A stretch of 64,000 nucleotides of DNA from a virus: the IMG/VR virus record IMGVR_UViG_3300049846_000568, positions 81,809-145,808 of that record. One strand, given 5' to 3'. Under the pieces are notes generated by a model, which was not told the origin of the DNA, did no database searches, and saw only the letters and a program-made list of their open reading frames with translations. This document shows positions 41,718-61,945 of the stretch, piece by piece (position 1 is the stretch's first letter; each line of letters opens with the position of its first letter). The translations under genes were made by a program, and so were the position numbers.

Positions 41718-42272
41718 TTATCCCCTCTTTGTTAGCGTAACATATATATCTGTGACTACATTGATGTAGTGCTTAATAGCAAAGGAGCGAGCTTCTTCAC
41801 TCCTATTTTGCCACGCCGGATCGAGTGCATATCCATAAACAAAATCGAAATCAGACTTGATCGGATAGTGGTCGAGCCCATTCGTAGTGCGCCATTCCTT
41901 ATTGTAGTAAAGGAAACTAGCCTCCGAAATAGCCCTAACATGTGTTGGATCTTGCCAAGCACGGATCGAGCTGTAATATGGGGCCACCACAGACATCTTG
42001 CCACCTGGCTTCAAAGTTCTGTGAACCTCATCCATAAATGCCATAAGATCGGCTACGTGTTCGATAAAGTGCGAACACTCAAATTCATCAACAGAATCAT
42101 CTTCAAATGGCCATGGGTAGACGTTCAAGTCATGAACTATATCTACTCCCTCCATTTCAGATATGTCTATACCAAGAAAACCTTCTGGCTTCCTCTGACC
42201 ACAAGCCAACGATACTCTAACTGGCTCTTCTACGACTTCTTCACTACCAGACGATGTCGTTGTCTGCGTCAT
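41718..42272 (-). CDS. Class I SAM-dependent methyltransferase (copy A)
   Basis: LACG motif I, GIDI, HDLN..PWPFEDDSVD, SHFIEH, RTLKPGG, DPTH. Confidence 0.9.
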   Translation of the reverse strand: MTQTTTSSGSEEVVEEPVRVSLACGQRKPEGFLGIDISEMEGVDIVHDLNVYPWPFEDDSVDEFECSHFIEHVADLMAFMDEVHRTLKPGGKMSVVAPYYSSIRAWQDPTHVRAISEASFLYYNKEWRTTNGLDHYPIKSDFDFVYGYALDPAWQNRSEEARSFAIKHYINVVTDIYVTLTKRG

Positions 42273-42963
42273 AATGACCTACCTTCACTCTCGTATCACA
42301 TGCGAACCTGTAACCGAACTTAGCGGCGTTCTCGAAGAAATAGAGATCTTGGGTATACGCCCTCGTTCCCACCCCTGGACTATATGACTGCTCAGTTCTA
42401 AACCACGGTCGCGGAATTCTTTCATCCTTAAACATATCAAGCTTGAAAAGCGTAAAGCCCATTCCAAGCCCATTGCACTCTTGAATTGTGTCTGCCTGAG
42501 GCACCTGTGGCATGAAGTTCTTAGGCATGGCTTTTGGGTCTCCATAAATCATTGGCTGACCCTCCTCACCCTTGGTCCAATAAATTCCGCCAATAGCATC
42601 GTATTGGTCCATGTTCTCGTACAGCCTTAAAAGGCCATCTGGTGGAGGCATGTTGTCTTCCTCTAGTGTGAGGATGTACTTCCAATCTGAAAGGCCAGGC
42701 GTGTTGATGATCTGCTCAATAGCGCTAGAATAAGCTGAACCCACTTCCATGCCAATCATGAATATGCGAGTAAAGCGGTTATTCATGGGTGTCATTAGGG
42801 CCATCCAAGACTGAACGACCTTGGCGTGAATATGCCCTCTGGTCGGGACGAGACAAATAGTGGAAAGATCCCTATATGCCTGCCCCTTCTCTAGGCGCTC
42901 TAATGAGGCTGGATCCGTGTTATGTCTGCCTTCTAGATTCTCAATTACAATCTGAGGTTTCAT
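42244..42963 (-). CDS. GT-A fold (family 2-like) glycosyltransferase (copy A)
   Basis: LVPTRG, YILTLEED (DxD-like), GLGMGFTLF, QDLYF, VKVGH. Confidence 0.8.
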   Translation of the reverse strand: MKPQIVIENLEGRHNTDPASLERLEKGQAYRDLSTICLVPTRGHIHAKVVQSWMALMTPMNNRFTRIFMIGMEVGSAYSSAIEQIINTPGLSDWKYILTLEEDNMPPPDGLLRLYENMDQYDAIGGIYWTKGEEGQPMIYGDPKAMPKNFMPQVPQADTIQECNGLGMGFTLFKLDMFKDERIPRPWFRTEQSYSPGVGTRAYTQDLYFFENAAKFGYRFACDTRVKVGHYDADNDIVW

Positions 42964-42996
42964 ATACAGTTTCCCATTAGACGATATAACGTCTAC

Positions 42997-43005
42997 ATTA
43001 TATCA
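42997..43005 (-). promoter_or_regulatory. Extended -10 promoter TGaTATAAT upstream of GT copy A, followed by a TAGACG/CGTCTA hairpin
   Basis: Perfect TATAAT with TGn extension 33 nt before the GT ATG; conserved in copy B. Confidence 0.7.
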
Positions 43006-46000
43006 CTATGAAATGCTCGACGCCATGATGTTGTAGTAGGGGATGGCGTTGGAGGCGTAGGACCGGATGTCTCGGAAGTCCACGTTGTTCGGTGGGGCGG
43101 CCGACTGCACCGAGAACACGCCATGCCCCGGGTTGTATTGCGAGCCCGAGGATGCCGCCGTCACGCCGAAGGGGCGGTGGTTGTACGACGACGAGTTGTA
43201 GATGCCATAGGCCGTGAGCGCGGGGAGCACCGGGTTCAACGTCGATCCCGCAGCCGTGTGAGCGGTGACCCAGGCGTGCGCCAGCCAGTAGTTGCCCGGC
43301 GTGATCTGTGCCGTGATCGGGATAGGCATCATCACCGCACCCGAGAGGATGTTGTAGATGCTCGCCAGGGCCGACGTGAAGAACGACGTACCGACCGACG
43401 AACCGGCCGAACTGGTGGCGTGGGTCCCCTGGATGGTGGCGATGGTCGAGTTGCCCGAGATGTCCACCTGACTCGGGTATCGGAGGTCTACCTGGCGCGA
43501 GGCGGTGACCTGCGTGGCGTTGCTGAGGCTGATCCCGACCGAGTGCGAGACCGAGATGGGGAAGGTGGCCGCCCACATCGACTCCAGCCGAGTGTTGTTG
43601 GTCCCAGTGCCTCGGGAGTAGAGGGCGATGATCCGAGACATGATGAAGGACTGACTCGCCCCGCCAGTGGTGTTGGAGGCGTACACCGTGCCGGTGCTTC
43701 CCTGGAGGACGGTCTGCGAGGTGCCGCCCATCGTGTGCAGGACGTTGAGGCGGCCCGGCCCGACGTAGGCGGGGACCTGCATCGGCTGGAAGTACCACGA
43801 CGACACGCCCATAGCGAACGTGGTCGAGCCGGACTGGAGCGGAGGGATCGGCTCGAAGAAGTCGAAGTCCGGTCCGGCGTGGATTGATAGTGTTCCATTA
43901 GAGCCGTTGATTGATTGACTTAATGTAACGTTTGACCCACCAACAAATACATATTGAGCACCGGCGCCATCTAGCGTGCCGGTCGTTCCAGCAGTATTGC
44001 CGCCAGTTGAAACACCAACGTTAATTGGGTTGAAAGAGGCCGTAAGAGTACCGGCATTCAAGCCAAAGGTGATGTTGTTACCGTTGGCGAATGAGACACC
44101 ACTGAGAACAATGGTATTGCTATTACCTGAAAGGGTTATGTTGTTGCCGCCCGAAAGATATAGGGCACTTCCCTGTAAACTTCCTGTTGTTCCAGAAGTA
44201 TTATTCCCCTCCAGTTCCCACGACTGGACATATTTGCTTGCCTGATCAGTTCCAAGATATGAAGTATTGACGCTAGCTGTTATCTGGCTACTATTGCTCA
44301 TTCCAAAAGTTACACCATTGCTATCCGCAAACTTAACACTTGTAGATGCACCAGCAGTTTGAGTACCGGCAGCTAGAATGTTATATCCATCTCCTGATCC
44401 TGGTGGAAGCGAACCAGAAATGATGATCTCTCCACCAGAATTGCCAATGCTGATAACACCAGCACCTCGAAGAGTAAGAGAGCGCGCATCATACGTTGAA
44501 GAAGATGACTGTCCTGTTGTCTGTGATGAGCCATAAATACCAATTGTCTGATTAGTCTGAGCGACAGTATTAGGTCCCGAGATTGTAACGGTAGCTAACT
44601 GACCTGCTGCGGTAGACTGTGAAAGTGTAATGTTGTTGCCACCAGCAAGCACCAGACGAGACTGAACAACGCCAGTATCTCCAAGCGTATTACCACCACT
44701 GCTGACACCATAAGCCTGAGACAACATCGACACAACGACCGTTGCCCCATCTGTGGCTGTTGCCTGAGAGAGTCTTACGCCGTTGCCACCCTGGAACACG
44801 ATTGGAACTCCAGAAGTGGTACCAGTATTACCGGAGGTATTGCCGCCAGTACTTACACCAGCAGAAGGTACAAGACCCTGCGTCTGCACACTCTGAGCTG
44901 CAACGCTGACGGATATACCATTAGAGGCGATGGTGCCATTTGCGTTTGTTCCCGCAAATGCAGCTGTGGCCTGCACAAAGTCAGTGCCCCTGTTGGACGC
45001 CATGGCGGTGGTAATGGCGTTGGGTGCAGAGAGGTGGATCTTACCGTCATTACTCATATTAACGGTCAGGGACCCAGCCACGTCAAACGATAGGGACCTA
45101 GCGTCTGCGGTGCCGCTAGATGTACCAGCAGTATTCCCGGCTCCGTATAATCCTACCGTCTGTGCAGATTGTGCCGCTACGGATACCGAGATGTTGTTTG
45201 AGGCGATAGTGCCAGAAGCGTTTGTACCGTTGAAGTTGGCGTTGGCTTGAACAAAGTCCGTACCGCGATTAGAAGCCATGGCCGTTGTAAGCGCATTAGG
45301 GGCGGAGATGTTCACTTTACCGTTTGTAGCGTCTAGAGTAAGGGAGCCGCCAACTATATTGAACGAAAGCGACCGAGCATCGGCTGTACCCGTACTTGTC
45401 CCAGAAGTCTGCCCTGAGACGTAGAGACCTAGTGACTGATTAGTTTGAGCCGCTGCAGATACCGAGATACCGTTAGACGCAATGGTGCCTGCAGCGTTTG
45501 TGCCCGCGAATGCTGCAGTAGCCTGAACAAAGTCAGAACCACGGTTTGAAGCCATGGCTGTCGTAAGGGCATTGGGTACGGAAAGATTTACCTTACCGTT
45601 TGTAACATCGACCGTAATTGAACCCTGGGCATTAAACGTTAATGAGCGAGCATCAGCCGTAGCAGTGGACGTGCCAGAGGTATTGCCAGACGCATAAAGG
45701 CCAACACTCTGATTACTCTGATTGCTCACGGACACAGAAAGGCCGTTTGAGGCTATAGTACCTGATGCGTTTGTTCCCGCAAAAGCTGCTGTAGCCTGTA
45801 CAAAGTCGCTTCCGCGATTAGAAGCCATCGCGGTTGTAATGGCATTAGGAACAGACAGACGGATTGTGCCGCCACTCATGTCTGCTGTGATGGACCCGGC
45901 AGCTGATACCGATAGAGATCTTGCATCAACCGTCGCTGTTGATGTGCCAGACGTATTACCTAAACCATAGAGACCTACTGACTGGTTTGTCTGAGCCGGA

Positions 46001-47265
46001 ACGGAGACAGAAATGCCGCTCGATGCGATGGTACCATTCGCATTTGTCCCGGCGAAAGCCGCATTAGCTTGAACGAAGTCAGAGCCCCGGTTTGAGGCCA
46101 TAGCCGTCGTTATGGCGTTGGGTGCGGAAATGTTCACCTTACCATTTGTTGCATCGAGTGTAAGCGATCCACCAACAACATTAAATGAGAGCGACCTAGC
46201 ATCTGCTGTACCAGTGCTTGTTCCAGATGTCTGACCCGAAACATACAAGCCTACAGACTGATTGGTTTGAGCTGGAACGGAAACGGAAACACCATTAGAA
46301 GCTATAGTTCCATTAGCATTGGTGCCAGCAAAAGCAGCTGTGGCTGCAACAAAATCTGATCCCCTATTCGAGGCCATGGCTGTAGTGATAGCGTTGGGGA
46401 CAGATAAGTTAAGGCGACCATTTGTGATATCTGCAGTAATAGAACCAGCGACACTTACGGTGAACGACCGAGCATCAAGTGTGCCAGAGGAGGTGCCGGA
46501 TGTATTTCCTGCGGCGTAGAGCCCTACGGTTTGGTTGGTCTGCGCCGGAACGCTAGGCACAGTGTAAGAACCGACCATAGAACCGTTGCTCGTATAGAAC
46601 GACATGCCGTTAAGGTTGCCGAACGTTGCCGTCTGAAAAGTAAATGACCCATTAGATCCAGAAAGAGCCTGATTGCTCTGACTTGTCAGGGCGTTGTGGC
46701 TGGCCGTAAGTGTCGAGTTGTTGCCGCCAAACGTAATACCATTCGCGTTGCCGAATGAGATGTCTCCAGTAGAACCCTGAACAGAGACCATGTTCTGCGT
46801 CTGCACCGTCTGGGCTGCAGTGGTGGGACCGCTAATCGTGATAGCGTTACCATTCTGAGAAATGGTCACATTATTACCACCAGCGATCGTCATCGTACCA
46901 GATGAGATATTTGCGGTGGCGCCTGCCGTATTACCGCTAATCACTGCGGCTGTAAGGTTGATGAAGTCATTAACGGTAGGAGCGTGGTCCCATGTTGCTC
47001 CACCGGCCCAAGAAACGGCAGAAGCGCCTTCTTGGGCGCGCAAAACTGCACCAGTGCTATTTCCAGATGTGTAGCCGGTCATGTAAATGACCTCGCTATC
47101 CGAAACGGCGTTGGTGTTAATTAGCTGAATGGCAATATACTGATCTGCTGTAAGCGTAGGGAAAGCAGGTACGGCACCGAACGAGATCGCCGTTGCACTA
47201 GACGCCATTGCGGAGGCGATAGTGCCCTGCTGGAAATTAACCCTAACAGGATAAAGCGCAGCCAT
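43006..47265 (-). CDS. Ser/Thr/Gly/Asn-rich repetitive fibre protein A
   Basis: 1419 aa. N-terminal fibre-attachment-like domain (EVIYMTG...RAQEG), six ~90-aa repeats, and a C-terminal globular tip paralogous to fibre B. Confidence 0.75.
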   Translation of the reverse strand: MAALYPVRVNFQQGTIASAMASSATAISFGAVPAFPTLTADQYIAIQLINTNAVSDSEVIYMTGYTSGNSTGAVLRAQEGASAVSWAGGATWDHAPTVNDFINLTAAVISGNTAGATANISSGTMTIAGGNNVTISQNGNAITISGPTTAAQTVQTQNMVSVQGSTGDISFGNANGITFGGNNSTLTASHNALTSQSNQALSGSNGSFTFQTATFGNLNGMSFYTSNGSMVGSYTVPSVPAQTNQTVGLYAAGNTSGTSSGTLDARSFTVSVAGSITADITNGRLNLSVPNAITTAMASNRGSDFVAATAAFAGTNANGTIASNGVSVSVPAQTNQSVGLYVSGQTSGTSTGTADARSLSFNVVGGSLTLDATNGKVNISAPNAITTAMASNRGSDFVQANAAFAGTNANGTIASSGISVSVPAQTNQSVGLYGLGNTSGTSTATVDARSLSVSAAGSITADMSGGTIRLSVPNAITTAMASNRGSDFVQATAAFAGTNASGTIASNGLSVSVSNQSNQSVGLYASGNTSGTSTATADARSLTFNAQGSITVDVTNGKVNLSVPNALTTAMASNRGSDFVQATAAFAGTNAAGTIASNGISVSAAAQTNQSLGLYVSGQTSGTSTGTADARSLSFNIVGGSLTLDATNGKVNISAPNALTTAMASNRGTDFVQANANFNGTNASGTIASNNISVSVAAQSAQTVGLYGAGNTAGTSSGTADARSLSFDVAGSLTVNMSNDGKIHLSAPNAITTAMASNRGTDFVQATAAFAGTNANGTIASNGISVSVAAQSVQTQGLVPSAGVSTGGNTSGNTGTTSGVPIVFQGGNGVRLSQATATDGATVVVSMLSQAYGVSSGGNTLGDTGVVQSRLVLAGGNNITLSQSTAAGQLATVTISGPNTVAQTNQTIGIYGSSQTTGQSSSSTYDARSLTLRGAGVISIGNSGGEIIISGSLPPGSGDGYNILAAGTQTAGASTSVKFADSNGVTFGMSNSSQITASVNTSYLGTDQASKYVQSWELEGNNTSGTTGSLQGSALYLSGGNNITLSGNSNTIVLSGVSFANGNNITFGLNAGTLTASFNPINVGVSTGGNTAGTTGTLDGAGAQYVFVGGSNVTLSQSINGSNGTLSIHAGPDFDFFEPIPPLQSGSTTFAMGVSSWYFQPMQVPAYVGPGRLNVLHTMGGTSQTVLQGSTGTVYASNTTGGASQSFIMSRIIALYSRGTGTNNTRLESMWAATFPISVSHSVGISLSNATQVTASRQVDLRYPSQVDISGNSTIATIQGTHATSSAGSSVGTSFFTSALASIYNILSGAVMMPIPITAQITPGNYWLAHAWVTAHTAAGSTLNPVLPALTAYGIYNSSSYNHRPFGVTAASSGSQYNPGHGVFSVQSAAPPNNVDFRDIRSYASNAIPYYNIMASSIS
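44890..46545 (-). repeat. Six tandem ~270-nt coding repeats (…DARSL…PNAITTAMASNRGSDFV…)
   Basis: Six TAMASNRG cores counted in the translation; DNA copies diverge at third codon positions. Boundaries approximate. Confidence 0.9.
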
Positions 47266-47279
47266 GCGCTACCTCCGTA

Positions 47280-47720: not shown

Positions 47721-47730
47721 TTAATCCTCA

Positions 47731-48519
47731 CTACGTAGTTAAGTTCTTAGAGATAACAATGCGGTACTTGTAGTTCTCGCTAAAGTACTCATAACCTGAT
47801 GTATAGTATACCACTGTCTCAGCGGGCGTGGCGGCCTCTGGGTAGTGGTCAACAGAAGGTAGGTCTACATATACGTAGATCCCATTCTGACTTAGACGTG
47901 CATCTATGTCTTCCCAGCGGGCTGGAGACCTTGAGATCTCCTTCTTCTGCACTTTGATGTTGGTCGAATTTACACTTGTTACGGCTGGTGCTTGACTAAA
48001 GGTTAGCCTGATGCGCCCGTAATGGTAATCCGCAGGTAGATAGTAGTCGCCATTGGGTGGATCGGCCTCGACAAACCTAAATGTCACGGTGTCTAGCGGA
48101 ATCGCAAACGTGTCGAACACAGTAGATACGATAGAATAATCTACAATGCTGACTTCCTCTGGTGCCGGAGGCAGACCATCAAGGGCCGTATTGACGGTAT
48201 CGCCAGTAGTGAACTGTACGACCCAATCATTAAGCGTTTGGCCCAGGATGTTCTTAAGCCCCGAAATCGTCAAAGTGTAATCAGTAGCCGGGGTTAGGAC
48301 ATCGTTGGCCCAATGCAGTGTCAGTGTTCTGCTAACAGAATTGTAATCCTCATTAAGGTCGATCGTATCAAACGGGTCAGTAATGGAGACCGGAGTTGCC
48401 TCATCTGTCGCAACTAAGAACTTGTCATTAGTAATCGAAGATGCTCTTAGCGACACGTTGAACTGAATCGTTACCTCATGAGCGGTTATGTCGATTGCCT
48501 CAACTAGATCTACAGCCAC
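47731..48519 (-). CDS. Ig-like (Big-5-type) head-associated protein
   Basis: GTG start with AGGAG RBS; LTPATDYTLTISGLKNILGQTL...FTTG; second Ig-like domain; two ATP motifs. Confidence 0.7.
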   Translation of the reverse strand: MAVDLVEAIDITAHEVTIQFNVSLRASSITNDKFLVATDEATPVSITDPFDTIDLNEDYNSVSRTLTLHWANDVLTPATDYTLTISGLKNILGQTLNDWVVQFTTGDTVNTALDGLPPAPEEVSIVDYSIVSTVFDTFAIPLDTVTFRFVEADPPNGDYYLPADYHYGRIRLTFSQAPAVTSVNSTNIKVQKKEISRSPARWEDIDARLSQNGIYVYVDLPSVDHYPEAATPAETVVYYTSGYEYFSENYKYRIVISKNLTT

Positions 48520-48611: not shown

Positions 48612-49664
48612 TTACGCTACAGTTCTGTGAAGCTCCACATCGTAGCTGCGTGCAAGATCCACGTTCTTTGCAACTGTGATGCCCTCGCCGTCACCCACCA
48701 TTACGATGTCGTAACGCTCCTTCATCTTCATTGCGCGGATGTCACGAGTCTGGTCTGTCCACTCATCTGTGGATAGGTCATCCTTAACAAGAAGGACGCC
48801 AACCTCGTTGCGGTCAATCAGGAACACATCAGACTTAGCTGCTGTTGCACCACTGCGTGCTGTGAAGCTGACGAATGGTGAAACAATCACGTTTAGGCCT
48901 GCTGGAGCTGTTGCGTTAGCAACACCTTCCTTAGAGCCAACACCCATACCCCAACGACCCGAAGGTACTGAATCGTTGCCGTACATAACTGCATTCTTTG
49001 CAAACAGCGCCCACATAAGTGGATGAATGATGAAGTCAGTAGGGGTGTGATTCTCTGCCATTAGAACTGCAGCCATATCAATGACGTCGTCCCATGTAAG
49101 GGTATCATTCTGGGCACCGGTTGAACCTAGGCCCGTTGTGGAATCGTAGGCGCCATCATCGTTATCGAAAACGATTGTTGCGGCGTCTGCGAAACGGGAT
49201 AGAGCTAGCTGCTCCTTATAGCGTGCCATAGCACGACCTGCAGCGCGAACGTGAAGGCCAACAATGTCCCAAAGGGAGTCAGAGATAACCTCTTCTGTGA
49301 AGACAACCTTCACACCCTTCTTGCTGACCTTACCCTCGACCTGCTTCGCGAATGCTAGAGCCTGCTCTGGGTATTCCTGTCCCTCTGGGATCTCTGCAGC
49401 CTGGATTGCGTTGACGGCTGGGAACTCGAGTGAACGACCCTTGCCAAGGCGCACGACAGAAAGAAGAGGAGTCACTAGAAGCTGTGGCTCAGCTGCTTCC
49501 TTCAGGGTGCGTGAAATCACCTTGGGGAACAGGATCGGAGCATCAGGAGAGGCAAAAGCCTCCTTGATGGTTACTCGATGCTCGTCATCGATGTTGCCGT
49601 CTTCTGCAAGGACTGACTCCCAAGTGGAGACATTCTGTAGAAGTTCTTCGATGGTCTTACTCAT
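48612..49664 (-). CDS. Major capsid protein (HK97 fold)
   Basis: AAEIPEGQEYPE, KKGVKVVFTEEVISDS, PTDFIIHP, GLNVIVSPFV, MKERYD; GGAGG RBS. Confidence 0.92.
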   Translation of the reverse strand: MSKTIEELLQNVSTWESVLAEDGNIDDEHRVTIKEAFASPDAPILFPKVISRTLKEAAEPQLLVTPLLSVVRLGKGRSLEFPAVNAIQAAEIPEGQEYPEQALAFAKQVEGKVSKKGVKVVFTEEVISDSLWDIVGLHVRAAGRAMARYKEQLALSRFADAATIVFDNDDGAYDSTTGLGSTGAQNDTLTWDDVIDMAAVLMAENHTPTDFIIHPLMWALFAKNAVMYGNDSVPSGRWGMGVGSKEGVANATAPAGLNVIVSPFVSFTARSGATAAKSDVFLIDRNEVGVLLVKDDLSTDEWTDQTRDIRAMKMKERYDIVMVGDGEGITVAKNVDLARSYDVELHRTVA

Positions 49665-50495: not shown

Positions 50496-51290
50496 TTACA
50501 GTGCCCTGCGACCCATTAGAGTGTCGGTTAGGAGATCCTCGAAAGCCTTAGTAGGATCCTTCGCCTCTTCCTCAACCTCTGCATCTACGGTGTCGACATT
50601 TTCCTCGCCCTCAACAGCGGCAATCTTGGGCTCTACGACGCCAGTAGGCATCTCGCGCTCAGTTGCTACCATCTTAGGCATTGCTGCTAGATCGCGAAGT
50701 GAATCAGCCAGCGAAGATGCGGTGCGACCTGCATGCTCCTCAATTGCCTCTGCACGACGAGATGACTCCTCAAGACCAGCTGTGATCTTTGCATCAACTA
50801 CTCGCTCTGCGAGCGTGCGATGTAGGGCCTTCTTTAGTCTAGCATTCTCTTCCTCAAGAGCCGTGACACGTGACTGAAGCTCGTCAACATCGTGCTCAGC
50901 CTCGACAGCATTTGTCTCGGTGAGGTCTGTATCGTCAGCCTGCTCACTTGCCTGGTCTCCCTCAGCTACCGCTTCGCCCTCTTCCTCGACAGCCTCTTCG
51001 ACTGTCTCGGACTCTTCGGACTCACGGGTGTCTGATGCGTCATCTGAATCTTCGGCCTCAGCAGTTGTATCCTGAGCTTGCTCAGCCTCTTCGGTTTCTG
51101 ACTGGTCATCTGACTCTGTAGTGGTATCTGCGTCAGTTTCTTCGGCCTCACTCTGCTCAGTAGCTTCTGCCGAATCATCTGAGGCTTCCTCAGTCTCCAC
51201 AGCAGCATTCAGGTCATCGCTTAGACCCTCTGTAATGGCGAGGATATCCTCGTCCTGCTCTGCTGTATCGACATGCTCTTCGTTAGCCAT
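50496..51290 (-). CDS. Probable nested in-frame scaffolding protein
   Basis: GAGGAG 9 nt before an internal ATG (MANEEHV...) at the start of the acidic region. Confidence 0.6.
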   Translation of the reverse strand: MANEEHVDTAEQDEDILAITEGLSDDLNAAVETEEASDDSAEATEQSEAEETDADTTTESDDQSETEEAEQAQDTTAEAEDSDDASDTRESEESETVEEAVEEEGEAVAEGDQASEQADDTDLTETNAVEAEHDVDELQSRVTALEEENARLKKALHRTLAERVVDAKITAGLEESSRRAEAIEEHAGRTASSLADSLRDLAAMPKMVATEREMPTGVVEPKIAAVEGEENVDTVDAEVEEEAKDPTKAFEDLLTDTLMGRRAL

Positions 51291-52236: not shown

Positions 52237-52998
52237 CTATGAAAAAGCTGGCTGTCGTGGATCGCCACGACCAATAAACTCATTCAACATCCACCTGTGC
52301 ATAATGTGCGACGAATAAATGTTTGATGCGCTATACATCTTGTAGCCGTGTCTGGTTACTTCCGCCGACCAACCAAGATCTTCACCCTGTCTGTGCCATC
52401 GATACCTAACATCACGATAGACTTCTGGCGCCATCATGACAGCAGCCATTGAAATCTCTACTTCAAAAACCTCACCAATTGGATACTCTTCCACTTTACG
52501 CTTAGCTTTACCGCCAGGATAATCCGCCCAATTCATAATGTTCGGAAATCTATCACCTTCCGGCGTCATGTAGCATAAAGGGGCTGCGGTGCAGCCTGAA
52601 TCTGTAAGATTGTATAGTTCCTGTAAAGTATTCTGGTTGGTTAGAACGATATCGGAATCCAAAGAGAAGTACCTTTCTGGAGCGTAATTGATTGCACGCT
52701 CTAGAAGGTTATTACGGAAGTTAACCATTCTGTAATAGTCTGATCGTGCCCATTGACGCTTGTCTTCTTGATGCGTCTTGTGTGTCTCGTCTGCTCTAAT
52801 GATTCCGTCAAACACCTCTACTTCTGGGTGTCGTGAATGCCATTCCCACAACATCTCGTGGGTTTCCTCGTCTGGAGTGCCAAGCTCAAAGATAAACCCT
52901 AAATCCGACAATGGAATCGTTTGGTTCTCTATACTCTCGAACCAATAGGGTAGAATCCAATCACGCTTATATACTGGACAGCCGATAAGAATCTTCAT
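52237..52998 (-). CDS. GT-A fold glycosyltransferase (third, distinct from the A/B pair)
   Basis: KILIGCPV, RNNLL, FSLDSDI (DxD), GEDLGW, terminal His motif. Confidence 0.85.
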   Translation of the reverse strand: MKILIGCPVYKRDWILPYWFESIENQTIPLSDLGFIFELGTPDEETHEMLWEWHSRHPEVEVFDGIIRADETHKTHQEDKRQWARSDYYRMVNFRNNLLERAINYAPERYFSLDSDIVLTNQNTLQELYNLTDSGCTAAPLCYMTPEGDRFPNIMNWADYPGGKAKRKVEEYPIGEVFEVEISMAAVMMAPEVYRDVRYRWHRQGEDLGWSAEVTRHGYKMYSASNIYSSHIMHRWMLNEFIGRGDPRQPAFS

Positions 52999-53204: not shown

Positions 53205-53442
53205 CTGCGGAATCCGCGGTGGCCGCTGCCTTCTTTGTGGCCGGTCGCTGCTTAGATTCGCTATCTGCCAAACGCGCCTCTAGGCTCTCAACGTACTCAA
53301 TCAAATTGTCAATCAATTCAACTGCGTACTCAAAAGCTAGACGAGTCTGGTTATTGCGAACAGCGGTAGCAAAACCCTTGCGGACATCAAGCTCTAGCTT
53401 GAAATTGCCCTGTCGCTGTTCCTTTAACTTTGGTTCAAACAT
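53194..53442 (-). CDS. Hypothetical coiled-coil protein
   Basis: 82 aa; TAATG coupling to the portal gene. Confidence 0.6.
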   Translation of the reverse strand: MFEPKLKEQRQGNFKLELDVRKGFATAVRNNQTRLAFEYAVELIDNLIEYVESLEARLADSESKQRPATKKAAATADSADDQ

Positions 53443-55091
53443 TAAACATCGTCCTCTCTATAGTCTTCCCCAATCAATTCTACCATCTCGGTAATCCAAT
53501 CGTCATCTGAACGACGAATATCTGGGGATGTTCTTGCGCCGTGCTGATTTGCTGGACGCACCACATTACCTGAAGCCTTACGTAGATTCTTCAGGTTTGG
53601 TCTACCACCCGTTGATGGCTGTTGTGCCGGGGCCGGTGTTGTATCAACTGTCTTTGGCGGCTTCTGGCCACCCGTTGCCGTCTTCTCGCCCGGAACGATC
53701 TGGTTTGGCTGCATGCGTACCTGCATGGCCATCATCGTGTCGTGCTCTGGAAGCTGAGGTGCACGACCAATTGCCTGACGACCCTCGCCAATTGTCTCAA
53801 GGTTGGAAGTAACCTTCTGTAGGGTGTGGTTTTCCTTCTTGACCTGAGTGTCGACATCGATCTCGTTGAACTTCATAATGCATCGATCTGAGACCCCACT
53901 AAGCTTAGGGTTGGCCATGGGATCGAAGCCGCCCTCACGGAGCAGCTCATCAAAGATGAACATACGTACACAATCAGCGAAATAGCGCTGATACTCCTTG
54001 ATCCTGTCGTAAAGGGCAGTATCAAGACGATCGGTCATGTCGCGGTTTGCGCCAGCGAAATCAACCATACCAAGATGATGAGGGAATACCCCAAGACCAA
54101 CAGCAGTACGAGTCTTGATGTGGTTCAAGAAACCGCTGATCTCTAGGACCTTGCCCTCAGAGCCGATGATCTCGACATTGTGACGGAAAGGCAGCACGAG
54201 ACCGCCCTCTGTTCTCAGAGACTCAAGCTCAAGAACCGCTTCATCAATCTCATCTGGCTCAGCAGGATGCTCCTCGGTACCGATGGTGTACTTGTAAAGT
54301 GGGAACAGTTCCCTGTGGATTAAGTTAAGATAATCTTCCTCGACCTGACGGAGTGCAATAAGGTCATCAAGAGCCGCTGTCATGAATGGTGTACCGAAGG
54401 CTCTACCAGGCTTACGATCCCTATACATGTGAATAATCTCGCTTGCATTCCAAGTAGGATCTACAACAGAGGTGTTACCAGTGTTGGCCTGCAAGAAACC
54501 GAGGTTAGAAGAAATTCGCTGACGGTACCACCTTGGACGGTTGTACTTGTCGCGCAGAATCTGTACGCTCTCGGTTGGGATCAAGTAATAGCCGATGATT
54601 GGACCCTTTGGTTGATCCGATTCGACATCACCAGGAAAGGTCTCGGCAATCTGGTCAGCACGGGACTTGACGACAAAGGCGTTGTGATAGCGGAAGAGCT
54701 GATCTGCCGTATCAATTAGGAAGTCTTGGAATGGGCGACCCATTGCAACTTCCATATAGTCAATACGCTGATATAGGTAATCTACAGCTTCCTGATTCTC
54801 GCCAACAATCGTCCAGCCTTCCTTCCAGAAAAGCTCACGATACTTAGCAAAAGCATTCTTGGCATAGGAGTCTGTGTCGATGGCCTGAGTAATGCGGTCA
54901 AAGTCGTAAGGAGGATCTTCAAAGTTGGCCCTCTTGCTTAGGTCTGTAGGAAGACCTTCATAGCCGAGCGCGATAGCCCTAATCTTAAAGGCCTTAGTTA
55001 AAGCCTTCTTGTCCTGAGTATCGAGGACTTGAGCCTTCTTCTCGACAATTGGTTGTTCTTTGAATGAAGGGAAGTAATCGCGAATGCCCAT
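53442..55091 (-). CDS. Portal protein
   Basis: 549 aa upstream of protease/MCP; EIIHMYRDRKPGRAFGTP, LGVFPHHLG, EGRQAIG portal-like motifs. Confidence 0.85.
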   Translation of the reverse strand: MGIRDYFPSFKEQPIVEKKAQVLDTQDKKALTKAFKIRAIALGYEGLPTDLSKRANFEDPPYDFDRITQAIDTDSYAKNAFAKYRELFWKEGWTIVGENQEAVDYLYQRIDYMEVAMGRPFQDFLIDTADQLFRYHNAFVVKSRADQIAETFPGDVESDQPKGPIIGYYLIPTESVQILRDKYNRPRWYRQRISSNLGFLQANTGNTSVVDPTWNASEIIHMYRDRKPGRAFGTPFMTAALDDLIALRQVEEDYLNLIHRELFPLYKYTIGTEEHPAEPDEIDEAVLELESLRTEGGLVLPFRHNVEIIGSEGKVLEISGFLNHIKTRTAVGLGVFPHHLGMVDFAGANRDMTDRLDTALYDRIKEYQRYFADCVRMFIFDELLREGGFDPMANPKLSGVSDRCIMKFNEIDVDTQVKKENHTLQKVTSNLETIGEGRQAIGRAPQLPEHDTMMAMQVRMQPNQIVPGEKTATGGQKPPKTVDTTPAPAQQPSTGGRPNLKNLRKASGNVVRPANQHGARTSPDIRRSDDDWITEMVELIGEDYREDDV

Positions 55092-55554: not shown

Positions 55555-55579
55555 AAAAACCTAAGGCGCCAAAGACGCC
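55555..55579 (-). terminator. Probable terminator after MTase copy B
   Basis: GGCGTC-TTT-GGCGCC hairpin then TTAGGTTTTT. Confidence 0.55.
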
Positions 55580-55583
55580 ATAC

Positions 55584-56168
55584 TTATGCCCTCTTGGTAA
55601 GGGTGACAAAGATATCGCTAATGACGTTGGTATAGTGCTTTGCCGCAAAGTTGCGCGATTCCTCGCTACGAGAAGCCCACAACTGGTCGAAAGCATAACC
55701 GTACACAAAATCATAGTCGGAGTCGATCTTATAGTGGTCAAGGCCATTCGTTGCGCGCCATTCCTTGTTGTAGTAAAGGAACGTAGCCTCCGATATAGCC
55801 CTTCTGTGGGTTGGGTCCTGCCATGCTCTAATTGAGTTGTAGTATGGCGCAACAACCAGTAACTTGCCGCCAGGCTTCAAAATACGGAAGCACTCATCCA
55901 TAAAGCATGAGAGACCATCTTTGCCGGGAGTATCCGACTCATGAGGAATGTGTTCGATGTAGTGAGAAGTCTCAAGCTCATCAACCGACTCATCCTCAAA
56001 TGGCCACGGATAAACATTAAGGTCGTGAACAACGTCTACGCCCTCAATATCGGCAATGTCTACGCCAATGTATCCTTCCGGCTTTCTCTGACCACAAGCC
56101 AACGAAACCTTAACTGGCTGCTCTTCTACAGCCTCTTCATTACCAGACGATGTCGTTGTCTGCGTCAT
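55584..56168 (-). CDS. Class I SAM-dependent methyltransferase (copy B)
   Basis: Paralog of 41718-42272 with a short insertion (IPHESDTPGKDG). Confidence 0.9.
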   Translation of the reverse strand: MTQTTTSSGNEEAVEEQPVKVSLACGQRKPEGYIGVDIADIEGVDVVHDLNVYPWPFEDESVDELETSHYIEHIPHESDTPGKDGLSCFMDECFRILKPGGKLLVVAPYYNSIRAWQDPTHRRAISEATFLYYNKEWRATNGLDHYKIDSDYDFVYGYAFDQLWASRSEESRNFAAKHYTNVISDIFVTLTKRA

Positions 56169-56859
56169 AATGACCCACCTTTACTCTCGTATCACATGCA
56201 AACCTATAACCAAACTTAGCTGCGTTCTCAAAGAAATAAAGATCCTGAGTATACGCTCGCGTACCCACACCAGGCTGATAAGACTGCTCGGTCCTAAACC
56301 ACGGTCGAGGAATTCGCTCATCCTTAAACATATCAACCTTAAACAACGTAAAGCCCATTCCCAGGCCATTACACTCTTGAACCGTATCGGGCTGAGGAAG
56401 CTGGGGCATGAAGTTCTTGGGCATCGCTTTTGGATCGCCGTAAATCATAGGCTGCCCCTCTTCGCCCTTAGTCCAGTAAATGCCACCAACGGCGTCGAAC
56501 TGATCCATATTCTCATATAACCTTAGAAGGCCATCCGGTGGAGGCATGTTATCCTCTTCCAGGGTGAGGATATATTTCCAGTCTGAAAGACCAGGCGTGT
56601 TGATGATCTGCTCAATAGCACTAGAGTAAGCTGCGCCCACTTCCATACCAATCATGAATATACGCGTGAAGCGGTTATTCATGGGTGTCATTAAGGCCAT
56701 CCAAGACTGGACAACCTTAGCGTGAATGTGGCCCCGGGTCGGGACAAGGCAAATAGTGGAAAGATCCCTATATGCTTGACCCCTCTCCAGGCGCTCTAAT
56801 GAAGCCGGATCTGTATTATGCCTGCCTTCCAGATTCTCTACTACAATCTGAGGTTTCAT
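56140..56859 (-). CDS. GT-A fold glycosyltransferase (copy B)
   Basis: Start set to ATG 56859 (MKPQIV) to match copy A; 239 aa with about 10 substitutions versus copy A. Confidence 0.8.
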   Translation of the reverse strand: MKPQIVVENLEGRHNTDPASLERLERGQAYRDLSTICLVPTRGHIHAKVVQSWMALMTPMNNRFTRIFMIGMEVGAAYSSAIEQIINTPGLSDWKYILTLEEDNMPPPDGLLRLYENMDQFDAVGGIYWTKGEEGQPMIYGDPKAMPKNFMPQLPQPDTVQECNGLGMGFTLFKVDMFKDERIPRPWFRTEQSYQPGVGTRAYTQDLYFFENAAKFGYRFACDTRVKVGHYDADNDIVW

Positions 56860-56892
56860 ATACAATTTCCCATTAGACAATATGACGTCTAC

Positions 56893-56901
56893 ATTATAGC
56901 A
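56893..56901 (-). promoter_or_regulatory. Extended -10 promoter TGcTATAAT upstream of GT copy B
   Basis: Same element, spacing and downstream hairpin as copy A. Confidence 0.7.
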
Positions 56902-56938
56902 TCGAAAACAAATCAAATGCTATACAGCATGGAAGAAA

Positions 56939-59900
56939 TTAGGACACGCTTGATCGCATGAAGTTCCAATACGGTATCACATTCGAAGCGTATGAACGGA
57001 CGTCGGTGAACGCTATAGTGGCCGGCTGTGATGCCGACTGCACCGAGAACACGCCAAGGCCAGGCATGTACTGCGAGCCAGTCGAGGAGGCCGTCTGGCC
57101 AAACTGGCGAGCAGAATAGGATGATGCCCCATAATGGCCCGCCTGAGTCAGCGCAGGAAGCGGGGAGGGAAGCGTCGAACCAGCCGTAGTGTGAGCGCTG
57201 ATCCAGCCATGAACAATCCAGTAATTGCCAGCCGACAATGAAGTATTCATATTGAACGGCATAAGAACCGAGCCAGTCAGAATATTGTATACGGACGCCA
57301 ACGCCGACGTGTAGAATGATGTGCCAACAGATGAACCCGCTGATGATGTAGCGTGTGTAGCCTGGATTGTCGCGATTGTGCTATTGCCCGAGATATCAAT
57401 CTGCGACGGGTAGCGCACATCTACCTGACGCGATGCGGTGACTTGCGTAGCGTTACTTAAGCTGACACCAACTGAATGTGAAATGGAAACGGGGAATAAG
57501 AATGTCGAGACTGACTCTAGACGGGTATTGTTTGTACCTGCACCTCGGCTGTAAACGCCAAACCAACGCGAGAGAACATACGATTGTGAAGCACCACCGG
57601 TCGTGTTTGTCGCGAAAATTGTACCAGTAGACGCCTGAAGAATGTTCTGGGATGTACCGCCGAGCATGTGAATCACATTGAAGCGGCCCGAAAGCAGCTG
57701 GGAGGGGATATAAGTTGGCTGAACATACCACGACGAGATGCCAGGGGCAAATGAGGTAGAGCCCGACTGCATAACTGGCAGTGGTTCGAAGAAGTCTAAT
57801 ACCCCACCAGCATTGATCGACACTGCCTGACCGTTGGCCTGTGAGAGCGTGACATTACTGCCACCCGCCAGAGTCCATGTTGCGCTCGTCAATGAAGCGG
57901 TCGTACCCGCAGTATTGCCCCCAATGACGACACCATCGACAGGGACCGAAAAATTGACCTTATTGTTGGTCATATCGACAGAAATGCCGCCCTGAGCATT
58001 AAAGGTCAGGGAGCGTGCGTCAACGGTGCCACTACTCGTCCCCGATGTATTGCCTGAGCCGTACAGGCCAATAGACTGGTTAGTCTGCGCTGCATTAAGC
58101 GCCGTGGAAGCATTGAGGATAAGCGAACCATTAGACCAGCCCACAGACACACCACCGCCAGAGCCAACGATAGTAAGCGACCTTGCGTCATACGTACTGC
58201 TGCTGGACTGGCCGACCGTCTGTGATGAGGCGTAAATGCCAAGAGATTGATTGGTCTGGGATGCGGCTGAAATGGTAACCGTCGCTTGGCGAGCGGCGAT
58301 GCCTGTTCCGACTGACTGGCTCAGCGTGACGTTGTTCCCACCTGCCAGAACGAAACGAGCATTAAGCACATCGGGGTAGACCGTTCCTGTCGTACCTGAG
58401 GTATTGCCAAGATTGGACACGCCGAGTTCTGCAAAGAACGGCTGTAGAATAGCGGTGAAGCCATCCGTAGCTGTAGCCTGGCTCCACTTCGCACCATTAC
58501 TAGCTTGCAGCACTAGGGGCACCCCGGACGATGTGCCCGTGTTGCCAGCCGTATTACCAACATTGCTCACACCAGCAGAGGGGATCAGGCCCTGCGTTTG
58601 TACAGACTGGGCCGCTCCACTCAATGACATGCCGTTGGAGGCGATCGTGCCTGTGATATTTGTTCCAGCAATGGTGGCGCTGGCTTGTACAAATCGCGTA
58701 CCAGCATCAGACGCCATTGCAGTTGTGATAGCGTTTGGCACGGATAGACGGATAGTACCACCACTCATGTCCGCTGTGATGGATCCGGCAGCTGAGACAG
58801 ACAAAGACCTGGCATCGACTGTGGCTGTTGAAGTACCGGAAGTATTACCTAACCCATAAAGACCAATAGACTGATTTGTCTGGGCTGGGACAGAGACTGA
58901 GATGCCATTAGATGCGATAGTACCATTAGCGTTGGTCCCCGCAAAAGCCGCAGTTGCAGCCACAAAATCGGACCCCCTGTTCGACGCCATTGCCGTCGTG
59001 ATGGCATTGGGGGCGCTAAAGTGGATCTTACCATCGTTACTCATATTAACCGTAAGAGAGCCAGCCACATCAAACGATAGAGACCTAGCGTCGGCTGTAC
59101 CACTTGAGGTTCCTGCGGTATTACCTGAACCATAAAGGCCTACCGTCTGAGCCGACTGCGCCGCAACGGAGACAGATATATTGTTGGAGGCGATAGTACC
59201 CGAAGCATTTGTCCCGTTGAAATTGGCATTAGCCTGAACGAAATCGGTGCCGCGATTTGAAGCCATAGCAGTTGTTATGGCGTTAGGCGCGGAGAGGTTA
59301 ATCATGCCGTTTGTCATATCGGCAGTGATCGATCCGGCAACATTAATTGTCAAAGAACGAGCATCAACAGTTCCGGTGCTTGTTCCTGATGTATTGCCAG
59401 AAGCGTAAAGTCCAATTGTCTGATTCGATTGAGCGCCAGCACCGCCAGAGATGATGATTTCTCCACCCGAGTTGCCGACGGAAATTCCACCAGCACCGCG
59501 GAAAGTCAGCGACCTTGCGTCATAGGTAGAAGATGAACTCTGTCCCGTCGTCTGAGAAGAACCATAGATCCCGATTGACTGATTCGTCTGGGCAGCAACA
59601 GATACCGAGATATTGTTTGAAGCGATTGTTCCAGAGGCATTTGTGCCGTTGAAGTTTGCGTTTGCCTGGACGAAATCGGTGCCGCGGTTTGATGCCATGG
59701 CCGTTGTTAATGCGTTTGGGGCAGAAAGATTGATCTTGCCATTGGTCATATCGACGGTAAGGCTGCCCTGGGCTTGGATAGTGAACGACCGAGCATCAAG
59801 CGTCCCGGTTGAAGTGCCAGATGTATTGCCCGACCCGTAGATCCCGATAGTTTGATTGGTTTGGGCTGGCACAGACACAGAAATACCGTTGGATGCGATT

Positions 59901-61945
59901 GTCCCATTAGCGTTAGTTCCAGCGAAAGCAGCTGTAGCATTAACGAAGTCCGAGCCCCTATTAGAGGCCATAGCAGTTGTAATGGCGTTAGGAACGGAGA
60001 GACGAAGAGTGCCGCCACTCATGTCTGCAGTTATGGACCCAGCAGCCGAAACAGAAAGCGAACGAGCGTCAACGGTGGCTGTAGAGGTGCCTGAAGTATT
60101 GCCAAGACCATAAAGGCCAATGGATTGATTGCTCTGATTACTTACGGATACAGATATGCCGTTTGATGCAATGGTGCCGGTTGCATTTGTGCCAGCAAAG
60201 GCAGCAGTTGCATTGACGAAGTCGGAGCCACGGTTAGACGCCATAGCAGTTGTGATAGCGTTGGGGGCTGAGAACCTTACGGTTCCACCGCTCACGTCAA
60301 TACTCAGCGAACCCGCAGCGGAGAAAGAGTGTGACCTAGCATCTACTGTTGCTGTAGATGTTCCGCTTGTGTTGCCGAGACCGTAGAGGCCAAGGGATTG
60401 GTTTGTTTGTGATGCGGCCGAAATCGTAATAGTAGCCTGGCGAGCTGCAATACCCGTACCGATGCTCTGCGACAGGGTAACGTTATTGCCGCCAGCTAGC
60501 ATAAGGCGAGCGTGGAGGACGTCTGCGTAAACTGTACCAGTAGTACCCGATGTATTGCCTAAGTTAGACATACCGAGCTCGTAGTAATACGGCTGCAGAA
60601 TTGCGGTGACATTGGTACCGTCTGTCGCCTGGCTCCATTTAGCGCCGTTGCTCGCTTGAAGAACCAACGGAACGCCCGAGCTAAGACCCGTATTACCCGC
60701 CGTATTACCGACAGTGGAGACGCCAATAGACGGTACAAGGCCTTGAGTCTGAACTGACTGAGCTGCCACAGATACAGAAACGCCATTAGAAGCAATGGTC
60801 CCAGTGGCGTTGGTGCCAGCAAAAGCGGCGGTGGCGTTAACGAAGTCTGACCCTCGATTAGATGCCATAGCTGTCGTAATAGCATTAGGGGCAGAGAGGT
60901 GAATCTTGCCGTCGTTAGACATATTGACAGTAAGCGATCCGGCCACATCAAACGACAGCGACCTAGCATCAGCGGTGCCACTGGATGTGCCAGCGGTGTT
61001 ACCTATGCCGTACAGCCCAACAGTTTGAGCCGACTGCGCCGCGACAGATACGGAAATATTGTTTGATGCGATAGTGCCAGAGGCATTAGTTCCGTTGAAG
61101 TTGGCGCTTGCCTGAACAAAGTCAGAACCGCGATTGGAGGCCATAGCGGTGGTGATTGCATTCGGCACAGAGAGACGAAGTGTGCCGCCGCTCATATCCA
61201 CACTAATAGAACCAGCGGCTGACACAGACAGGGATCTGGCGTCGACGGTTGCCGTAGAGGTACCCGATGTGTTGCCAAGGCCGTAAAGACCGATCGACTG
61301 ATTTGTCTGCGTCGGAACCGTATAGCTAGCAGTTATGACCGATGAGTTCGACATCCCAAAAGACATGCCGTTGCTGTTGGCAAACGATACTGTCGCTGTA
61401 GCATCGGCCGTTTGGCTTCCAGCGGCGAGAATATTGCCACTACCACCGGCCACAGATGGTACTGAAACCAACAGCTCGCCATTTGACATACCAACAGACG
61501 CGATGCCCATACCCCTCACAGTTAAGGATCGAGCGTCCTGTGTAGATGACGACGATTGCCCCACCGTCTGCGAGGATGCATAAATACCTATTGTCTGATT
61601 GGTCTGAGTGCCTCCCCCTGCACTAATCGTAATACTCTGCCCATTTTGGCTCAGCGTAACATTAGACCCACCGGCAAGCACGACAGTCCCACTGGTAACA
61701 GATGCTGTAGCCCCAGAAGTGTTTCCGCTAATAATGACACCCTGGACAATAGAGCCCGTTTGTACGCTTTGTGTTGGGCCGACAATAGACATCGTGGCGG
61801 TTGACCCATTTGTGGAACCACTTAATGTTATGTTGGATCCGGCTTGAATTACAAGATTCTCGAATCCCGTATCGTCACTATTCCGGCGAACCAGCGCAGA
61901 TGCATTGACGGATAAGTTGGATGGTGTATCACCAAATTTAGACAC
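56939..61945 (-). CDS. Ser/Thr/Gly/Asn-rich repetitive fibre protein B
   Basis: 1668 aa; eight copies of the ~90-aa repeat (one variant); tip domain paralogous to fibre A; different N-terminus. Confidence 0.75.
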   Translation of the reverse strand: MSKFGDTPSNLSVNASALVRRNSDDTGFENLVIQAGSNITLSGSTNGSTATMSIVGPTQSVQTGSIVQGVIISGNTSGATASVTSGTVVLAGGSNVTLSQNGQSITISAGGGTQTNQTIGIYASSQTVGQSSSSTQDARSLTVRGMGIASVGMSNGELLVSVPSVAGGSGNILAAGSQTADATATVSFANSNGMSFGMSNSSVITASYTVPTQTNQSIGLYGLGNTSGTSTATVDARSLSVSAAGSISVDMSGGTLRLSVPNAITTAMASNRGSDFVQASANFNGTNASGTIASNNISVSVAAQSAQTVGLYGIGNTAGTSSGTADARSLSFDVAGSLTVNMSNDGKIHLSAPNAITTAMASNRGSDFVNATAAFAGTNATGTIASNGVSVSVAAQSVQTQGLVPSIGVSTVGNTAGNTGLSSGVPLVLQASNGAKWSQATDGTNVTAILQPYYYELGMSNLGNTSGTTGTVYADVLHARLMLAGGNNVTLSQSIGTGIAARQATITISAASQTNQSLGLYGLGNTSGTSTATVDARSHSFSAAGSLSIDVSGGTVRFSAPNAITTAMASNRGSDFVNATAAFAGTNATGTIASNGISVSVSNQSNQSIGLYGLGNTSGTSTATVDARSLSVSAAGSITADMSGGTLRLSVPNAITTAMASNRGSDFVNATAAFAGTNANGTIASNGISVSVPAQTNQTIGIYGSGNTSGTSTGTLDARSFTIQAQGSLTVDMTNGKINLSAPNALTTAMASNRGTDFVQANANFNGTNASGTIASNNISVSVAAQTNQSIGIYGSSQTTGQSSSSTYDARSLTFRGAGGISVGNSGGEIIISGGAGAQSNQTIGLYASGNTSGTSTGTVDARSLTINVAGSITADMTNGMINLSAPNAITTAMASNRGTDFVQANANFNGTNASGTIASNNISVSVAAQSAQTVGLYGSGNTAGTSSGTADARSLSFDVAGSLTVNMSNDGKIHFSAPNAITTAMASNRGSDFVAATAAFAGTNANGTIASNGISVSVPAQTNQSIGLYGLGNTSGTSTATVDARSLSVSAAGSITADMSGGTIRLSVPNAITTAMASDAGTRFVQASATIAGTNITGTIASNGMSLSGAAQSVQTQGLIPSAGVSNVGNTAGNTGTSSGVPLVLQASNGAKWSQATATDGFTAILQPFFAELGVSNLGNTSGTTGTVYPDVLNARFVLAGGNNVTLSQSVGTGIAARQATVTISAASQTNQSLGIYASSQTVGQSSSSTYDARSLTIVGSGGGVSVGWSNGSLILNASTALNAAQTNQSIGLYGSGNTSGTSSGTVDARSLTFNAQGGISVDMTNNKVNFSVPVDGVVIGGNTAGTTASLTSATWTLAGGSNVTLSQANGQAVSINAGGVLDFFEPLPVMQSGSTSFAPGISSWYVQPTYIPSQLLSGRFNVIHMLGGTSQNILQASTGTIFATNTTGGASQSYVLSRWFGVYSRGAGTNNTRLESVSTFLFPVSISHSVGVSLSNATQVTASRQVDVRYPSQIDISGNSTIATIQATHATSSAGSSVGTSFYTSALASVYNILTGSVLMPFNMNTSLSAGNYWIVHGWISAHTTAGSTLPSPLPALTQAGHYGASSYSARQFGQTASSTGSQYMPGLGVFSVQSASQPATIAFTDVRSYASNVIPYWNFMRSSVS
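58605..61315 (-). repeat. Eight interspersed ~270-nt coding repeats
   Basis: Seven TAMASNRG cores plus one TAMASDAG core. Boundaries approximate. Confidence 0.88.

Follow-up and report, generated by a model that had tools for sequence, protein, structure and literature searches.

To our knowledge, a few mycobacteriophages are the only cases so far in which glycosylation of virion proteins by phage-encoded enzymes has been demonstrated, the modified structures being the capsid and the tail tube. In bacteria, long repeat adhesins are encoded beside dedicated cytoplasmic glycosyltransferases in the serine-rich-repeat (SRR) adhesin loci (GspB/Fap1 with GtfA/GtfB and the accessory Sec system) and in the autotransporter heptosyltransferase systems (TibC/TibA and Aah/AIDA-I), and the adhesin is modified before its export or assembly. 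Cluster O mycobacteriophages carry an O-methyltransferase beside three glycosyltransferases, and these enzymes reportedly modify capsid and tail tube (PMC11600133, citing Freeman et al. 2023). In the A064R protein of PBCV-1, two rhamnosyltransferase domains are joined to a methyltransferase whose target is O-2 of the terminal rhamnose in the glycan of the capsid protein Vp54 (PMC7826918). Here, we describe a cassette of three genes, encoding a giant fibre, a glycosyltransferase (GT) and a methyltransferase (MT), that occurs twice in the last 64 kb (the window) of the single 145,808-bp contig of IMG/VR virus record IMGVR_UViG_3300049846_000568. The gene content of each cassette is limited to these three genes.

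Our favoured interpretation, held with moderate confidence and with good backing from gene linkage, is that each cassette serves, as part of a late operon, to produce a self-glycosylated virion fibre of an uncultured 146-kb contractile-tailed phage. The soluble GT would act in the cytoplasm of the host during infection, moving a sugar from a nucleotide sugar to serine or threonine, or possibly asparagine, residues of the fibre repeats. The translationally coupled S-adenosyl-l-methionine (SAM) methyltransferase would then methylate the added sugar, and the modification would be complete before the fibre is mounted on the virion. The GT–MT pair would have been duplicated within the phage lineage, with one copy kept beside each fibre. 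This mechanism draws support from the folds predicted for the enzymes and from their position in a late operon, where the GT and MT genes are translationally coupled and synteny is conserved. No component for export or for a lipid carrier is present, which also agrees with it. Further support comes from about 20 of the 91 positions of the fibre repeat, which are serine or threonine in 90% or more of the 24 repeat copies compared across four fibres and are potential acceptor sites. The benefit could lie, for example, in protease shielding, solubility, masking or adhesion.

The two cassettes and their products

The order fibre, GT, MT is found at positions 41718–47265 (cassette 1) and again at 55584–61945 (cassette 2), with the head module, from portal to capsid, lying between the two and with all of the cassette and head-module genes discussed here on the minus strand (Table 1). 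A third copy was not found in the 145,808-bp genome. GT1 and GT2 are identical at 229 of 239 residues, all ten changes being conservative, and MT1 and MT2 at 140 of 194 (72%). The GT and MT genes overlap by 29 nucleotides in each cassette, the sole difference between the overlaps being the stop codon (TAG vs TAA). An initial annotation of the window, made from the sequence alone, had reported this twofold order around the head module, GTs differing at about ten residues, more diverged MTs, a preserved overlap and fibres with common repeats and tip but unrelated N-termini. The gene calls and alignments agree with it on all of these points, residues 1–107 of fibre 1 being unmatched in fibre 2. 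The list of open reading frames gives GT2 as 258 residues with a TTG start (extra stretch 56860–56916); the alignment with GT1 and the conserved spacer indicate that this form is probably too long and that translation starts at the ATG at 56859.

Searches of the GT against Pfam and NCBIfam produced no family match, and its sole PHROG match is phrog_1574, a family of unknown function. The AlphaFold2 model of the GT (predicted local distance difference test, pLDDT, 90.2; predicted template-modelling score, pTM, 0.85) is a single Rossmann-like α/β/α domain of the GT-A type. A Foldseek search of this model against the PDB returned 379 matches at E ≤ 0.001, the best 50 of which are all GT-A-type enzymes or related nucleotidyltransferases. 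The top match is STIV A197 (E = 2.4 × 10−12, template-modelling (TM) score 0.73 by target), and the next include LH3, COLGALT1, Mnn9, mimivirus R699 and ppGalNAc-Ts, which glycosylate proteins or build glycans. A197 is also the only PDB sequence match (E = 2.3 × 10−4) of a profile built from 39 GT homologues. An acidic motif (Glu101-Glu-Asp103) occupies the DXD position as E-E-D and not as D-X-D; Thr99, Glu101, Asp103 and His230 are invariant among the 39 homologues. The segment LTLEEDN of the GT aligns with LAFLDEDV of A197, placing the invariant E-x-D of the family on D-E-D of A197. These results support the glycosyltransferase identity given in the initial annotation and assign the enzyme to the GT-A fold, and transfer activity is predicted from the model.

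Neither GT nor MT contains a 19-residue window with a Kyte–Doolittle hydropathy above 1.1, and both enzymes therefore lack a membrane segment and are soluble. This observation bears on the possibility that the enzymes modify an envelope glycan of the host or the phage DNA, for receptor masking, superinfection exclusion or anti-restriction, and that the fibre is a mere neighbour. Serotype conversion and DNA glucosylation are among the established roles of phage GTs (PMC12619734), and homologous GT–MT pairs are located near surface proteins on Patescibacteria chromosomes. However, in addition to the missing membrane segment, neither cassette encodes a flippase or a bactoprenol-type GT, and both pairs are located in the structural operon beside the fibres and not in the replication module. 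No DNA-methyltransferase family was matched in the family searches, and the adjacency to a fibre is conserved in many lineages. An envelope or DNA target is thus very improbable.

Both MTs match Pfam family Methyltransf_11 above its curated cut-off of 21.2 bits (35.6 bits for MT1 and 22.7 bits for MT2), and a match with the methyltransferase family phrog_6636 is also observed. The region of the glycine-rich motif I (GxGxG) reads LACGQRKPEG, which is a degenerate form. The Atlas structure and feature neighbours of the MT are all class I SAM methyltransferases (TM scores 0.8–0.9). The identity given in the initial annotation is thus supported at the level of a small class I SAM methyltransferase, for which methylation of a sugar is predicted from its linkage to the GT (29-nucleotide overlap and co-inheritance). 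A substrate-specific family match was not found in the family profile searches. The GT could also glycosylate the fibre with the MT methylating protein (asparagine, glutamine, lysine or the N-terminus) and not the sugar. Such a role would suit a generic small Methyltransf_11 enzyme that lacks a substrate-specific match and fibres that are rich in asparagine and glutamine, and a host enzyme reportedly methylates a mycobacteriophage tail protein (PMC13445384). Nevertheless, the translational coupling and joint inheritance of GT and MT are what would be expected of consecutive steps on one product, the fibres contain very few lysines and the known virus examples methylate a sugar (PMC7826918), making protein methylation rather improbable.

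The fibres are almost free of charge, with six or seven lysines, seven glutamates and no cysteine in 1400–1700 residues, and Ser, Thr, Asn, Gly and Ala together account for about 60% of their residues. Fibre 1 consists of an N-terminal domain of about 107 residues, short GGNN(I/V)TLS units, six 91-residue repeats, more short units and a C-terminal domain. Residues 12–103 match phrog_8469 (tail fiber protein; E = 4.8 × 10−6), and the domain occurs in 778 representative clusters. With few exceptions it occupies the N-terminus of its protein (108–1565 residues), and several of these proteins are tailspikes or tail fibres. Given this standard N-terminal anchor, fibre 1 is most likely a tail fibre. 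The anchor domain was not found in fibre 2, which begins with short GGNN(I/V)TLS-type units and contains eight full 91-residue repeats, together with partial ones, in three blocks. Two virion attachment sites for the two fibres are plausible in view of the anchor being present in fibre 1 only, and the 240-residue tail-fibre-like protein encoded next to fibre 2 could act as its adaptor. A hydrophobic N-terminal segment or signal peptide was not found in the fibres.

All Pfam matches of the fibres were below the cut-off. The model of the C-terminal (tip) domain, which has a middling pLDDT of 66, is a β-sandwich. With this model, VIA-align gave a mycobacteriophage Bxb1 tail-tip protein (Z = 13.6), chain Z of a cyanophage A4 capsid entry (9jwb; Z = 12.3) and carbohydrate-binding modules (CBMs) at Z = 7–9; chain Z of 9jwb is probably the CBM-bearing cement protein gp25 (PMC12002296). 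A Foldseek search of the tip model against the PDB did not yield a convincing match. The best match in the BFVD viral structure library is a parallel-beta-helix-repeat protein of an 'uncultured Caudovirales' (E = 9 × 10−20), and the same library shows the tip domain to be common to many collagen-repeat fibres. The CBM-like tip probably contacts the host surface.

Asn-X-Ser/Thr sequons exceed the numbers in shuffled sequences in the two fibres (46 vs 31.7, z = 3.0, and 60 vs 36.1, z = 4.8), and the reversed motif does not (23 and 22). The conserved GNTSG and GGNN(I/V)T motifs each hold a sequon. The enrichment is not counted as evidence because the repeat copies are not independent.

Conservation and history of the unit

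A total of 4236 proteins belong to the GT family at E ≤ 0.001, and the best 120 of them are mostly 63–77% identical to GT1. Gene order was compared in 23 phage loci, comprising 22 IMG/VR loci found with the GT and the GenBank phage MW202524, and in 80 loci from species-representative genomes. An MT homologue is located downstream of the GT in all 23 phage loci and in 72 of the 80 genome loci; in the other eight, no more than 1.5 kb of sequence follows the GT. The main clades are common to the trees of GT and MT, indicating that the two genes are inherited as a pair. A same-strand protein of 480–2150 residues with an S+T+N+G+A fraction of at least 0.56 and a K+R+D+E fraction of at most 0.09 is encoded upstream in 18 of the 23 phage loci, and the stop codon of the upstream fibre is often only 5–60 nucleotides ahead of the GT start in many independent lineages. 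The strict repeat motif GG[NS]N[IV]T[LIF]S was found 96 times within 5 kb of a GT (913 kb searched) against three occurrences in the other 630 kb. Every occurrence is upstream of a GT copy and on the same strand as the GT, and the motif is about 50-fold denser near the GT. The link between GT and MT is thus near-universal, and the link to the repeat fibre type is strong, although not obligatory. The portable fibre–GT–MT unit proposed in the initial annotation therefore receives strong support, with an uncharged repeat protein as the usual upstream partner. No match was obtained when the entire 21-kb region was compared by megablast with 50,697 phage records.

A gap of about 1 kb separates GT and MT in L038–L043, L048, L053, L055 and some 25 other loci, and is filled by one conserved gene of about 330 residues (phrog_14881 in L043). 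These loci represent a four-gene variant of the cassette.

Between the two copies in the window, the GT genes have a nucleotide identity of 85.6%, with a synonymous divergence (dS) of about 1.2, a nonsynonymous divergence (dN) of 0.023 and a dN/dS of 0.019. The MT genes are less similar (74% nucleotide identity, dS about 1.6, dN 0.165, dN/dS 0.10), and the fibre tips (the 334-residue C-terminal domains) are 66% identical in amino acids and 63% in nucleotides, with saturated dS and a dN of 0.293. Both copies of every gene have long been maintained by purifying selection, the GT being very strongly constrained and the MT and fibre tip much less so. Two diverged copies in one genome in this way constitute a natural experiment on which parts of the system are constrained. 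The cassettes are collinear across their last 2.2 kb at 72.5% nucleotide identity. The absence of a near-identical tract at this identity, together with the dS of about 1.2, rules out an assembly artefact, a repeat collapse or a chimera, and the view of the initial annotation that the duplication was unlikely to be artefactual is upheld.

GT1 and GT2 form a sister pair in the GT tree (support 100/99), nested in a clade that also contains the phage loci L002 and L003 (96/94); MT1 and MT2 are likewise sisters (87) and group with the same two loci (93). The tip of fibre 1 is 88% identical to that of L002 and 83% identical to that of L003, compared with only 66% for fibre 2. Synonymous differences (pS) climb from the GT (0.60) through the MT (0.66) to the tip (0.73), and all comparisons of the copies with L002 and L003 are saturated. 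The closer relationship of the fibre 1 tip to L002 and L003 could indicate that the second cassette was acquired separately by horizontal transfer. Such acquisition does happen, since the two GT–MT pairs of locus L007 fall in different clades. In the present genome, however, the sister relationships of both enzymes inside the L002/L003 clade and the retention of the spacer, the overlap and the gene order all argue for duplication, and there is little chance that a separate acquisition, or a chimera, accounts for the second cassette. Two courses of duplication fit the data, which favour neither: the whole cassette may have been duplicated in the phage lineage, followed by fast evolution of the fibre 2 tip, or the two fibre types may be older paralogues whose GT–MT segment was homogenized later. 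Two GT–MT pairs are also present in L005, as in L007, and tandem GTs (GT-GT-MT arrangements) are found in L060, L066, L067 and L086, indicating that the unit has multiplied repeatedly.

Of the 80 genome loci, about 60 are in bins labelled Patescibacteria (Saccharibacteria, Paceibacterota, Parcubacteria and others), among them contigs of 440–912 kb and near-complete chromosomes. In the Saccharibacteria contig L032 (5662–16911), the unit is situated between TatC and a tRNA synthetase. Immediately ahead of the GT is a gene for a 445-residue protein that contains four GGNN(I/V)TLSQ units and lacks a signal peptide, and surface proteins with a signal peptide are encoded behind the unit. Pfam and PHROG scans of L032 and L043 found a few PHROG families of unknown function and no capsid, portal or terminase match. 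These chromosomal islands may be either prophage remnants or cellular loci. The distribution of the cassette relatives points towards a host among the Patescibacteria, although it does not settle the host. A more far-reaching reading is that the fibre–GT–MT unit is a self-contained mobile kit for a glycosylated adhesin, passing between tailed phages and the cell surfaces of Patescibacteria. The A197-like GT-A enzymes would then form a new class of cytoplasmic protein glycosyltransferases recognizing the GGNN(I/V)TLS/GNTSG repeat, possibly at Asn-X-Ser/Thr sequons, and the duplicated kits would give two differently anchored fibres distinct methylation patterns, the latter in view of the roughly sevenfold faster divergence of the MTs compared with the GTs. 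We give this reading low credence.

Target of the modification and genomic setting

The GT1 and GT2 genes are preceded by 42-nucleotide spacers that are identical at 38 positions and start with TGATATAAT (cassette 1) or TGCTATAAT (cassette 2). Only two TGNTATAAT sites are present in the 64-kb window, one before each GT. The elements look like extended −10 promoter elements. A scan with the sigma-70 consensus did not flag the conserved TGNTATAAT elements because there is no −35 match.

Several observations weigh against a dedicated fibre-modifying unit. The acceptor, the donor sugar and the target of the methyl group are all deduced from gene linkage, and the conserved asparagine, serine and threonine residues of the repeats could be purely structural, for example as β-solenoid ladders. 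Given the 96% identity of the GTs, there is no need for a second enzyme to account for two specificities. The histories of the fibre tips and of the GT–MT pairs are incongruent, showing that the trio did not travel as a single block throughout. Of 95 eligible loci, only 34 contain the strict repeat motif close to the GT, and in L013, L022 and L023 the GT–MT pair is located behind capsid genes (directly behind them in L022 and L023) with no such fibre upstream. These findings indicate that the pair can occur without this type of fibre and that its acceptors may include other virion proteins. These last two observations would also be expected if GT and MT glycosylated virion proteins in general (capsid, tail or baseplate) and were adjacent to the fibre owing to shared late expression and co-transfer; an own TGNTATAAT element before each GT would permit expression apart from the fibre. 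On the other hand, the short distance between fibre stop and GT start in many lineages, the density of the motif near the GT and the presence of a separate GT–MT pair for each fibre in the phage genome are in better agreement with a fibre target. A general virion target is therefore considered unlikely, and modification of the fibre encoded in the same cassette remains our preferred interpretation.

The features of the locus are listed in Table 1. Two tail-sheath homologues are encoded downstream of cassette 1, identifying the virus as contractile-tailed. In the region 33285–35692/35741–39739 (minus strand), three adjacent paralogues of 226, 249 and 289 residues match phrog_9206, and the tail-sheath matches are in two separate genes (567 and 428 residues). 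Such a doubling of tail-module genes is unusual. A third GT in the head module was considered for a 253-residue open reading frame (52237–52998, minus strand) between the portal and the protease/scaffold-like gene. Its weak match with the Pfam family Anp1, a GT-A mannosyltransferase family (E = 7.9 × 10−4), is below the cut-off and was unconfirmed, with an hhalign probability of 0.2 against the GT profile and no PDB sequence match. Upstream of the window, at positions 59501–65340 of the genome, a glycosyltransferase gene of the GT2 type at the edge abuts genes for dCMP deaminase, ThyX and a B12-type ribonucleotide reductase.

Table 1. Positions of the cassette genes, protein domains, neighbouring genes and putative regulatory elements in the 64-kb window
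Feature	Position	Strand	Length	Assignment or remark
MT1	41718–42272	−	184 aa	Predicted class I SAM methyltransferase (Methyltransf_11)
GT1	42244–42963	−	239 aa	Predicted GT-A fold glycosyltransferase
TGATATAAT element	42989–43005	−		Extended −10-like; cassette 1, 33 nt before GT1 ATG
Fibre 1	43006–47265	−	1419 aa
Fibre 1, C-terminal domain	43009–44010	−		Residues 1086–1419; CBM-like
Fibre 1, six 91-aa repeats	44896–46542	−		Residues 242–790
Fibre 1, N-terminal domain	46936–47265	−		Residues 1 to about 107; tail-fibre/tailspike type
Ig-like protein	47731–48519	−		Big_5
Major capsid protein	48612–49664	−		Phage_capsid_4, E = 6 × 10−18
Protease/scaffold-like gene	50496–52163	−
Portal	53442–55091	−		phrog_9232, E = 7 × 10−44
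Terminator-like element	55565–55579	−		GC hairpin and T-run directly after MT2
MT2	55584–56168	−	194 aa	Predicted class I SAM methyltransferase
GT2	56140–56859	−	239 aa	Length from ATG; predicted GT-A fold, uncurated A197-like family
TGCTATAAT element	56885–56901	−		Extended −10-like; fibre–GT spacer of cassette 2, 33 nt before GT2 ATG
Fibre 2	56939–61945	−	1668 aa	GTG start behind AGGGAG ribosome-binding site
Fibre 2, C-terminal domain	56942–57925	−		Residues 1341–1668; CBM-like
Tail-fibre-like protein	61947–62669	−	240 aa	fn3 remnant; phrog_30390 and phrog_10316; abuts fibre 2 start

Comparison with described glycosylation systems

The logic of a repeat adhesin encoded beside dedicated GTs is common to the cassette and to the SRR adhesin and TibC/Aah systems. 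The resemblance to SRR loci noted in the initial annotation stands as an analogy of this kind and does not extend further. The cassette GT has a predicted GT-A fold, in contrast to the GT-B/GT4 fold of GtfA/GtfB and the BAHT fold; the fibres lack a signal peptide, an LPXTG motif and Ser-dipeptide arrays, and the cassettes lack SecA2 and SecY2. Membership in the SRR adhesin loci is ruled out by the GT-A fold and the absence of a signal peptide. The nearest solved structure is A197 of the archaeal virus STIV (PDB entry 2c0n), a GT-A enzyme that agrees with the GT in fold and in having an acidic motif where DXD is expected. Their sequence identity is 17%, and A197 has neither a coupled MT nor a fibre context. 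We know of no established substrate of A197.

The mycobacteriophage systems resemble the cassette in having soluble phage GTs and a methyltransferase among or near the structural genes and in modifying virion proteins in the cytoplasm (PMC11600133; PMC12619734). The acceptors reported there are the C-termini of capsid and tail-tube subunits and not a giant repeat fibre, and the likeness drawn here is one of gene layout. A cassette for each fibre and its duplication are not described there. In PBCV-1, as in the cassette, a virus GT is coupled to a methyltransferase, and A064R methylates the terminal sugar of a virion-protein glycan (PMC7826918). A064R is, however, one fused protein of a eukaryotic virus that acts on capsid N-glycans, whereas two overlapping phage genes beside a fibre are found here, and the two are likened by their proposed function.

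If the proposed role is correct, glycosylated fibres would be common in environmental viruses, given that the GT family has more than 4000 homologues, with many in uncultured phages and Patescibacteria genomes, and the cassette would offer a handle on host recognition by phages of ultra-small bacteria. What is new here is the duplication within one genome with its selection analysis, the trees, the incongruence between tips and enzymes, and the restriction of the anchor domain to one fibre. Taken together, the comparisons partly support the interpretation of the initial annotation, namely as to the unit and the enzyme classes, and place the cassette, with its predicted chemistry, within virus-encoded virion glycosylation as a system built on an uncurated GT family.

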